Source: Eledone cirrhosa
Lineage: Eukaryota
DNA length: 64,000 nt
Assembly: GCA_964016885.1 (NCBI GenBank)
Contig: OZ024742.1
Location: 209,808,001-209,872,000, forward strand
Direction: 5' to 3'
Of the stretch, positions 34,056-40,026 are shown one piece after another. Position numbers and translations under genes: made by a program. Within the stretch, counting starts at the first letter, position 1, and each line of letters begins with the position of its first letter. The notes under the pieces are model-generated. The model was given only the letters and a program-made list of their open reading frames with translations. It did no database searches and was not told where the DNA came from.

Positions 34056-34992
34056 GAAAAAATAATAAAATTTCCATAACAAAAGGGAATTTTACTTATT
34101 GTATAAATCATATTGTTTATAAATCAAGTTGACTTTGGCCGAATGAAAAGCAAAATATTATAGTTCAATACTCATTTAAGCAGTTTAGCAATGGAGCTTA
34201 CTTCCAGCAGTATTCTAATTATTAGAATAGAAACTTAATTAGTAACTCAATTAAGAGTTGTAATGTAACAAACTTAATTTAGAAGGCAATCAGTGATTCT
34301 GAAAGGCGTTTTATGTATTCAAATGGTACCTGAAAATTTGATACATGTTTCAGACACTATCGTAATTGAATTGGGGAAAATATATCTAGCACATAATGTG
34401 TCGGGTTGTTTTCCCCTATGTCTACACAGGTGTGTTGCGTTCCATGTACACACGTACACATAACATTGTAAAACAATATAATAATGTATAATGATTTTAA
34501 AAGCGCTATTTGAAAATAAATTACTGGTTTAAATACATTTACTTCATTAAATTAAAATAGAGTTCGGATTTATTTTTGATTAATTCATTCCTCCGTGTAT
34601 TAAATTCTTGAAAAAATAATTAGTTAGTTAATGTGCAAATGTAGAAACTTGAAAAGAGGGCTATCCAGTGAACTAGTAGATAAAAACTCTCTTTATGTGT
34701 GGTGGGATTGTTTTGTTAACGTATAAACAACAAGCAAAACAGATAAATTCCCAAAGATCAGTTCATCAAAGTTTTGAACGATACAGACACACCGGATTGG
34801 AGCAGTTGTTAAAGCAAACTATTGAAAGCAAGGAACGTGTTTCAGCCGCTATGGTGAAGCATATTCTACTCAGTTGATAAAACTAAGAGAGATCTATATA
34901 TATATATATATATATAAAAGTAGCGAAACAAACGGTTATTAAACAATTTTCTAAATAAATTAAAAAATGATTAAATAATCACCTGTTCAGAT

Positions 34993-35073
34993 GCTGTTAC
35001 CGACGGTTTCATCATTCCAAAAGATTGGAAATCCAACGAATTTCCAATGGAAAGAAATGAATCTTCAGACAGC
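34993..35073 (-). ncRNA. Type I hammerhead ribozyme (also 35450-35530, 35907-35987, 36364-36444 on minus)
   Basis: GCTGT-CTGAAGA-T-TCATTTC...GGAATGA-T-GAAA-CCGTCGG-TA-ACAGC. Confidence 0.85.
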
Positions 35074-36723
35074 CCTATTTCCACGCTATAAGGTATAGCA
35101 AGTAAATATTATGCTCCCTGCCCAACGCATGCGGTCAAGCCGTTAAAGTGACACACACGCAAATCAGGTCGCTGATAAAAGCTGGATATTATAAACATGT
35201 CGAATTGCCACTAAAATTAGCGGCATTATTCAACGTTTTGTTCTCTACGTAAGGAGAATAAATTATAGAAGTGGATGGATACTTCAACAGGTACAATGTA
35301 CTTGTAGAAATATTCAAGTTGTTTATAATACATGTGGTTCAATGGCACTAATTCGAGATACCAGAACAATATAAAAGTAGCGAAACAAACGGTTATTAAA
35401 CAATTTTCTAAATAAATTAAAAAATGATTAAATAATCACCTGTTCAGATGCTGTTACCGACGGTTTCATCATTCCAAAAGATTGGAAATCCAACGAATTT
35501 CCAATGGAAAGAAATGAATCTTCAGACAGCCCTATTTCCACGCTATAAGGTATAGCAAGTAAATATTATGCTCCCTGCCCAACGCATGCGGTCAAGCCGT
35601 TAAAGTGACACACACGCAAATCAGGTCGCTGATAAAAGCTGGATATTATAAACATGTCGAATTGCCACTAAAATTAGTGGCATTATTCAACGTTTTGTTC
35701 TCTACGTAAGGAGAATAAATTATAGAAGTGGATGGATACTTCAACAGGTACAATGTACTTGTAGAAATATTCAAGTTGTTTATAATACATGTGGTTCAAT
35801 GGCACTAATTCGAGATACCAGAACAATATAAAAGTAGCGAAACAAACGGTTATTAAACAATTTTCTAAATAAATTAAAAAATGATTAAATAATCACCTGT
35901 TCAGATGCTGTTACCGACGGTTTCATCATTCCAAAAGATTGGAAATCCAACGAATTTCCAATGGAAAGAAATGAATCTTCAGACAGCCCTATTTCCACGC
36001 TATAAGGTATAGCAAGTAAATATTATGCTCCCTGCCCAACGCATGCGGTCAAGCCGTTAAAGTGACACACACGCAAATCAGGTCGCTGATAAAAGCTGGA
36101 TATTATAAACATGTCGAATTGCCACTAAAATTAGCGGCATTATTCAACGTTTTGTTCTCTACGTAAGGAGAATAAATTATAGAAGTGGATGGATACTTCA
36201 ACAGGTACAATGTACTTGTAGAAATATTCAAGTTGTTTATAATACATGTGGTTCAATGGCACTAATTCGAGATACCAGAACAATATAAAAGTAGCGAAAC
36301 AAACGGTTATTAAACAATTTTCTAAATAAATTAAAAAATGATTAAATAATCACCTGTTCAGATGCTGTTACCGACGGTTTCATCATTCCAAAAGATTGGA
36401 AATCCAACGAATTTCCAATGGAAAGAAATGAATCTTCAGACAGCCCTAGTGCCATTGAACCACATGTATTATAAACAACTTGAATATTTCTACAAGTACA
36501 TTGTACCTGTTGAAGTATCCATCCACTTCTATAATTTATTCTCCTTACGTAGAGAACAAAACGTTGAATAATGCCGCTAATTTTAGTGGCAATTCGACAT
36601 GTTTATAATATCCAGCTTTTATCAGCGACCTGATTTGCGTGTGTGTCACTTTAACGGCTTGACCGCATGCGTTGGGCAGGGAGCATAATATTTACTTGCT
36701 ATACCTTATAGCGTGGAAATAGG

Positions 36724-36804
36724 GCTGTCTGAAGATTCATTTCTTTCCATTGGAAATTCGTTGGATTTCCAATCTTTTGGAATGATGAAACCGTCGGTAA
36801 CAGC
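36724..36804 (+). ncRNA. Type I hammerhead ribozyme (also 37181-37261)
   Basis: Same motif on the plus strand in the right arm. Confidence 0.85.
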
Positions 36805-37440
36805 ATCTGAACAGGTGATTATTTAATCATTTTTTAATTTATTTAGAAAATTGTTTAATAACCGTTTGTTTCGCTACTTTTATATTGTTCTGGTATCTCG
36901 AATTAGTGCCATTGAACCACATGTATTATAAACAACTTGAATATTTCTACAAGTACATTGTACCTGTTGAAGTATCCATCCACTTCTATAATTTATTCTC
37001 CTTACGTAGAGAACAAAACGTTGAATAATGCCGCTAATTTTAGTGGCAATTCGACATGTTTATAATATCCAGCTTTTATCAGCGACCTGATTTGCGTGTG
37101 TGTCACTTTAACGGCTTGACCGCATGCGTTGGGCAGGGAGCATAATATTTACTTGCTATACCTTATAGCGTGGAAATAGGGCTGTCTGAAGATTCATTTC
37201 TTTCCATTGGAAATTCGTTGGATTTCCAATCTTTTGGAATGATGAAACCGTCGGTAACAGCATCTGAACAGGTGATTATTTAATCATTTTTTAATTTATT
37301 TAGAAAATTGTTTAATAACCGTTTGTTTCGCTACTTTTATATTGTTCTGGTATCTCGAATTAGTGCCATTGAACCACATGTATTATAAACAACTTGAATA
37401 TTTCTACAAGTAAATTGTACCTGTTGAAGTATCCATCCAC

Positions 37441-40026
<2,586 letters not shown>

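Follow-up and report, generated by a model that had tools for sequence, protein, structure and literature searches.

The 64-kb stretch of Eledone cirrhosa contig OZ024742.1 analysed here (the window) contains a tandem array of a non-coding 457-bp unit with a GC content of 35% (Table 1). The array is made from two arms, which arm-to-arm comparison showed to be reverse complements of each other. At a period of 457, TRF reports 3.4 copies at 34912-36448 and 2.2 copies at 36447-37447, and each arm carries a single substitution relative to the reference unit (36447-36903), at 35678 in the left arm and at 37413 in the right. An initial annotation had described a 457-bp hammerhead unit, repeated first on the minus and then on the plus strand, with an inversion at a TA microhomology and with both 3' ends pointing outward into (TA)n, neither of them at the cut site. 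These features were confirmed. The array holds 3.36 minus and 2.19 plus copies; the arms overlap by exactly 2 nt (TA), the left arm ending at unit position 274 and the right arm beginning at position 1; and end mapping places the 3' ends at unit positions 435-439 (left arm) and 84-87 (right arm), both overlapping a TA run and both away from the cut site. The longest ATG-started frame, in any frame of the closed 457-bp unit, is 35 aa, in keeping with the non-coding nature of retrozymes.

Table 1. Positions of the two-armed insertion and its parts within the window
Feature	Positions	Strand	Remarks
Left (TA)11 target run	34895-34916		Final 5 nt shared with the A end of the element; from sequence
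Arm A, 1537 bp, 3.36 units	34912-36448	-	RNA sense on minus; 3' end is fixed site A (unit 435-439), inner end at unit 274
Type I hammerhead motif, arm A, copy 1 of 4	34993-35073	-	Motif search
Type I hammerhead motifs, arm A, other three copies	35450-35530, 35907-35987, 36364-36444	-	Motif search
Inversion junction, 2-nt TA microhomology	36447-36448
Arm B, 1001 bp, 2.19 units	36447-37447	+	3' end is fixed site B (unit 84-87)
Type I hammerhead motif, predicted cut after 36799	36724-36804	+	Palindromic stem III predicted to favour a dimeric fold
Type I hammerhead motif, predicted cut after 37256	37181-37261	+	Motif search
Right (TA)15 target run	37444-37473		First 4 nt shared with the B end

All six type I hammerhead motifs in the window are intact, four on the minus and two on the plus strand. 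Stem I is formed by GCUGU/ACAGC, the core reads CUGAAGA...GAAA, and the cut is predicted after GUA (unit 353). A search of 33000-39500 against Rfam gave no hammerhead match, just three unrelated weak ones; since Rfam misses the motifs of the 457-bp unit, the hammerhead call rests on motif and pairing. A U10.1-U11.1 mismatch opens stem II, a variant that has been reported among natural hammerheads (PMC3088659). In 10 hand-picked relatives, with identities down to 88%, 98.8% of 240 cells pair and the core and stems are kept; one stem II pair is changed on both sides, although these relatives represent few independent events.

The active fold of the isolated motif is predicted at -17.9 kcal/mol, 8 kcal/mol above the minimum fold at -25.9 kcal/mol, and the palindromic stem III reaches -11.3 kcal/mol as a two-molecule duplex. 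From these fold energies and the palindrome, the hammerhead is predicted to be active as a dimer in tandem transcripts and quiet as a monomer. For the closed unit, the predicted fold has an energy of -118.7 kcal/mol (z -5.3 against 60 shuffles) and sequesters the hammerhead core. By its sequence, the element in the window is an animal non-LTR retrozyme, for which self-cleavage and circular RNA are predicted. The retrozyme identity given in the initial annotation is thus upheld by a low-GC, non-coding tandem unit with one hammerhead per unit and dispersed copies.

Several other features lie in the same window. A small two-armed, TA-flanked element at 30577-30845 has a hammerhead-like motif at 30699-30780. 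A degenerate TA-rich tract of 3.7 kb (42205-45935) includes a hammerhead-like motif (44307-44387) and may consist of piled-up insertions that target TA. Open frames at 7811-12505 and 2-754 were judged by eye to resemble fragments of non-LTR retrotransposon RT or nuclease.

Fixed end sites and their pairing

The unit belongs to a young family, and many near-identical copies of it are dispersed across the 3.0-Gb genome. Exact end junctions form 151 clusters on many contigs, as expected of dispersed mobile copies, and scans for exact junctions found 88 A ends and 72 + 42 B ends entering TA, with no control matches. A total of 158 loci were examined, of which 41 were chosen by similarity, 115 by junction and 2 by ribozyme core. 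The two 3' ends in the window had originally been taken for chance internal stops. This was wrong: the end positions are not arbitrary but correspond to two fixed, family-wide sites, A and B. In the 41 similarity-picked loci, 62 of 65 arm 3' ends coincide with A (unit 434-439) or, as aligned, with B (84-93); of the three exceptions, two are cut by the fetched stretch. Site A lies 85 nt past the predicted cut and site B about 190 nt past it, leaving an A-B gap of 105-110 nt. The TA flanks at the 3' ends of the arms match the microsatellite target of the Penelope-like signature. Any target-site duplication would be masked by the (TA)n repeat itself.

The unit contains four other TATA and three other ATAT words that are not used as arm ends, so TA microhomology alone does not pick the start sites. 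A and B each lie in a U-rich stretch that is predicted to be single-stranded and directly follows a hairpin.

Two arms with outward 3' ends are found at 96 of the 158 loci, and 87 of these combine an A with a B end; one is A+A and none is B+B. Counted by source, the 89 two-armed loci in fetched DNA comprise 80 A+B, one A+A and eight with one odd or cut end, and all seven further loci with a very short second arm are complementary (A+B). The junction scan yielded 48 outward pairs: 47 A+B, one A+A and no B+B (p 8e-14). The same pairing holds in 11 of 12 cases in a sibling family (84-88%), and in an unrelated 467-bp family with an HH9-like ribozyme, where 31 loci, two of them a duplicate, gave 25 A+B, one B+B and five odd combinations. 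Two-armed insertions thus nearly always have one 3' end at A and the other at B. The A+B arms, with TA at both 3' ends, support the earlier suggestion that priming took place from both sides of the TA target.

A copy of the 467-bp family is present in the window at 29029-30376, two-armed, in a TA run and with its own fixed ends 69 nt apart. It matches Rfam Hammerhead_HH9 with an E value of 1e-7, under the gathering score.

The inner (5') ends of the arms are scattered over the unit. There is no significant pile-up of inner ends at the cut (6 versus 3.5 expected), at A (9 versus 5.6) or at B (6 versus 4.0), so that neither cleaved RNA nor colliding RTs have left a direct trace in them. Extra or unmatched bases are found at 19 of 89 junctions. 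Microhomology of at least 2 nt is present at 33 of 70 junctions compared to a null of 18%, which supports the joining of two cDNAs by short microhomology, as the initial annotation had supposed. Arm lengths correlate within loci (rho 0.39, n = 80).

Not all arrays of the 457-bp family are two-armed. A single-orientation array of 18.6 kb, with about 41 units (G000:C2:144715674-144734266; L068, L221, L310), has TA on both sides and ends near unit 388, which is neither A nor B. It is possibly a source array or a satellite in the making. At two loci (L066 4302-4400 and L218 3380-3464), retrozyme arms are fused to another repeat family that also bears a hammerhead; in L066, the fusion lies one base beyond the predicted cut site of that other family. 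These fusions are possibly template switches between RNAs.

Variants shared between the arms

Variants were counted in 93 of the 158 loci, after removal of 24 loci that belong to a longer subfamily and of 41 whose arms were short or under 96.5%. At four common polymorphisms, the two arms of a locus match in 83 of 84 comparisons; independent draws would give about 24 disagreements, a contrast that subfamily timing could inflate. Rare variants are fixed in every unit of both arms at 13 loci. A 13-kb two-armed copy with 19 + 9 units (G000:C1:156425693-156438639; L123, L124) carries two variants in all 28-29 covered units; a private T>G is found in 6 of its 28 units, scattered across both arms, as from a template base that was misread on some passes, or from conversion. 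In 40 multi-unit loci, there are 20 haplotypes, of which 16 are singletons within that set, each fixed in all units; the parents of private haplotypes could lie outside the 158 loci examined. Units differ by 0.18%, and sites with four or more copies show 75 single, 7 intermediate and 8 rare fixed variants.

In Roll-Seq, as described in PMC11331410, a change in every repeat comes from the RNA circle, and a change in one repeat comes from RT or later. By this logic, a variant found in every repeat was already present in the RNA that was copied repeatedly, and locus-private variants in every unit of both arms are the pattern expected from one RNA monomer copied round and round. The arms also cross the cut site seamlessly, with 4 substitutions and no indel in 331 passes; those that extend beyond it are 67 of 83 A arms and 56 of 87 B arms. 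Since most arms do so, a cleaved linear monomer did not serve as the template.

In the 467-bp family, some unit-specific variants are common to both arms in register, or alternate with a period of 2, which calls for multimeric templates (dimer or longer) or arm-to-arm conversion. One locus of this family (L301, G000:C5:62049000-62055999) has two unit types alternating with period 2 and one marker that continues in register into the other arm; the alternation is compatible with a dimeric circle. The original proposal of a circular RNA copied from both ends thus stands as far as one shared template is concerned, with a circle as the likeliest source of the tandem units, and has to accommodate multimeric templates in the 467-bp family.

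The fixed variants are biased on the RNA strand. A>G accounts for 13 of 26 distinct fixed variants and for 8 of 115 single-unit variants (p 1e-6), and fixed A>G outnumber fixed T>C by 13 to 3 (p 0.002). The simplest reading of this excess is A-to-I editing of structured RNA, with selection for G-U pairs as its rival. Twelve of the 13 A>G sites are predicted to be paired, compared to 85 of 127 A's (p 0.026); in the folding model, this pairing state leans towards editing, and it would also fit selection for G-U pairs. The bias is weak in the sibling family, where A>G makes up 5 of 24 fixed variants against 11 of 157 (p 0.04) and T>C is found 0 times, and the fixed variants of the unrelated 467-bp family show no strand bias (8 A>G, 7 T>C). 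Pooling the three families gives 26 A>G against 10 T>C (p 0.001), driven by the 457-bp family.

A resident Penelope-like element

A GIY-YIG search of the genome, in which 150 of 10595 candidates were scored, found a young Penelope-like family (L101, L102 and others) with 92-98% protein identity between members, which is abundant in the genome. Other Penelope-like families are also present. In Pfam, L101 scores over the cut-off for GIY-YIG and 1.6 bits under it for RVT_1. The translation contains RT and C-terminal GIY-YIG motifs, DKG, CX4CxxC and CCHH; the L101 copy has a frameshift close to its start. From these motifs, the family would fit the Neptune/Nematis type, defined in PMC8557442 by RT with a C-terminal GIY-YIG, DKG, a CX2-5CxxC linker and CCHH. 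The closest named relative is an octopus protein with 75% identity over 56% of the query. The pLTR includes a minimal hammerhead with a U3-A8 core variant of the kind described in PMC4209133.

This element also inserts into (TA)n. Exact matches to its two fixed ends number 3972 and 4169, and in the first 68 Mb of C1 these ends are paired A+B in 31 of 33 cases. Its ends resemble those of the retrozyme, with TTTATA at A, and CAC, a pyrimidine run and TAAT at B. The distance from cut to A is 82 nt in the element and 85 in the retrozyme, and that from cut to B is 145 and 193, respectively. The retrozyme unit has no alignable homology to any pLTR among 50 GIY-YIG loci, with 150 of 10595 candidates scored.

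At one locus (L153 2590-3362), an arm of the sibling retrozyme runs on into the B end of an L101/L102-type element, beyond which lies a different Penelope-like ORF interrupted by two breaks. This chimera could also be due to a deletion, and its reading as a full element was rejected, since the ORF belongs to a different family. A retrozyme beside the L102 element was considered as its pLTR and likewise rejected; this retrozyme inserted separately into the TA run that also holds the element.

On balance, the L101/L102 element is a reasonably likely partner for the retrozyme. The initial annotation had a break in the TA microsatellite priming RT. Priming from both sides is supported, and because the architecture matches that of the resident Penelope-like element, a cut made by such an element is likelier than a chance break.

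Proposed mechanism and known systems

The explanation that we favour, and regard as probable, is that this insertion of a non-autonomous hammerhead retrozyme arose when a Penelope-like protein cut both strands of the TA run and simultaneously copied a single RNA, which was probably circular, from two fixed sites. A tandem retrozyme array would be transcribed, and monomers would be excised by dimeric hammerheads and then ligated into circles. A Penelope-like RT/GIY-YIG protein, likely with two active sites on one RNA, would nick both strands of (TA)n. Each 3'-OH would pair with a UAU(A) word in the U-rich stretches that are predicted to be single-stranded, one at A and one at B. Both RTs would then circle the template with strand displacement to produce tandem cDNAs, the ends of which would be joined through 0-5 nt of microhomology and filled in. 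A more far-reaching version, which we put forward tentatively and with some doubt, is that Penelope-like elements integrate as an asymmetric two-headed machine, its two RT sites starting at A and B with one for each cut DNA strand, that the two heads roll round one retrozyme circle, and that A-to-I edits thereby become fixed DNA changes.

The same two-site priming by a Penelope-like protein could operate on a linear multimer that is transcribed from a source array and left uncleaved, which would make a circle unnecessary. The 41-unit array could be such a source, the inner ends show no pile-up at the cut site, Penelope-like insertion in vitro did not need ribozyme cleavage in the experiments of PMC11167929, and in-register, unit-specific variants are common to both arms at several loci of the 467-bp family (L295, L320, L302). 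However, in the 457-bp family itself, such sharing is found only at a homopolymer (L034). A linear template also requires a homogeneous parent for each of the 16 singleton haplotypes, plus a prior step fixing each variant, and leaves the sense-strand A>G excess among fixed variants unexplained. We consider this template unlikely, though by no means negligible. Far less probable is a chance double-strand break in the TA microsatellite that was patched by any RT, with the starts chosen by TA microhomology only. Every end does overlap a TA word, and TA runs flank both sides, but just two of the TATA/ATAT words in the unit are used, and independent choice predicts about half A+B instead of 47 of 48. 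The pairing counts thus largely refute it, and the resident Penelope-like element obeys the same A+B rule.

An origin at the DNA level, in which short insertions were later expanded or homogenised by unequal exchange, extrachromosomal DNA circles or conversion between inverted arms, also appears quite improbable. Variants at intermediate frequency are few (7 versus 75 single and 8 fixed), units differ by 0.18% only, DNA processes do not produce a sense-strand bias, and the polarity of fixed 3' and variable 5' ends tracks the RNA strand; what speaks for DNA-level events is that some long arrays have period-3 or period-4 duplications and scattered shared variants (L039; BIG1, BIG2; L302). An assembly or fold-back read artefact is hardly credible in view of 89 loci with differing, asymmetric junctions and locus-private variants in both arms, even though the inversion joint of the window has no match in four public contig sets compared over 36270-36720, in which the individuals may differ. 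One run of unknown kind contained a 487-nt contig that comprises the unit once plus 30 nt, which equally fits tandem DNA or a circle.

Retrozymes, their circles, the proposed role of Penelope RT, and the inverted arm with a one-sided tail in Penelope elements were all known; what is new is a testable integration signature in retrozymes. Circles as RT templates and Penelope-like elements as mobilisers were proposed for metazoan non-LTR retrozymes by Cervera and de la Pena (2020, PMC7229834). The elements described there share with ours a low-GC, non-coding tandem unit with one type I hammerhead each. Their units range from about 150 to 450 bp with a GC content under 50%, and the 457-bp unit lies just above that range. 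Reverse transcription of circles is hypothetical in that paper, the main text of which uses neither “inverted” nor “microsatellite”, whereas the ends, pairing, target and variants are measured here. Li, Clavereau and Pollet (2026, bioRxiv 10.64898/2026.07.22.740005) describe animal retrozymes as non-autonomous Penelope derivatives, based on co-occurrence and pLTR homology. They propose local tandem amplification, and the text covered has no analysis of insertion ends or templates. In contrast, the link here is a shared integration signature, and pLTR homology was not found. In the open-access literature, we found no description of retrozyme insertions with two arms or fixed ends, of the A+B rule, or of variants used as evidence for circles, and the part of PMC9977147 that was covered adds nothing further on the A+B rule or circle templates.

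An inverted, 5'-truncated copy with a one-sided tail is described as a hallmark of endonuclease-bearing Penelope-like insertions (PMC3846280, PMC8557442). These insertions and the retrozyme share head-to-head arms, a one-sided tail and a microsatellite target, but the tail is 105-110 nt in the retrozyme compared to 30-40 in Penelope-like insertions, and the retrozyme cargo is a non-coding multimer. The inversion is ascribed in these sources to self-priming or endonuclease resolution, whereas the counts presented here point to two primed starts, one per arm. In vitro, the Poseidon element PAc cuts and extends both DNA strands at AT-rich sites (Frangieh et al. 2024, PMC11167929). In the same paper, RT is reported to start at two internal sites that lie downstream of the hammerhead cut, and a dimer is predicted. 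The PAc starts are described as having no DNA homology and no strand difference, whereas the retrozyme starts overlap TA words and the two sides differ.

Until now, the way in which ribozyme circles return to animal genomes was a matter of hypothesis, and the literature covered treats the source of the inverted arm and one-sided tail in Penelope-like elements as undefined. The 457-bp family allows both questions to be put as rules that can be counted: a single RNA has two fixed start sites, each used by one arm, and the pattern is shared with a named candidate enzyme from the same genome. The family also supplies the substrate, the protein and an expected product with which the reaction could be tested in vitro. 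If the A>G excess reflects editing, RNA edits would have a way of entering the DNA. If the two-headed reading is true, each insertion would be a natural multi-pass read of one RNA, and the edits would be heritable.

In L1 twin priming, both target strands prime on one RNA, and the resulting inversion is joined by microhomology. The internal position at which the second primer lands varies, and the two arms have no overlap. Unlike in L1, both sites are fixed in the retrozyme, and the two arms are copies of the same sequence, which is often repeated several times. Roll-Seq (PMC11331410) is a laboratory method, and the same pattern is seen here in genomic insertions.
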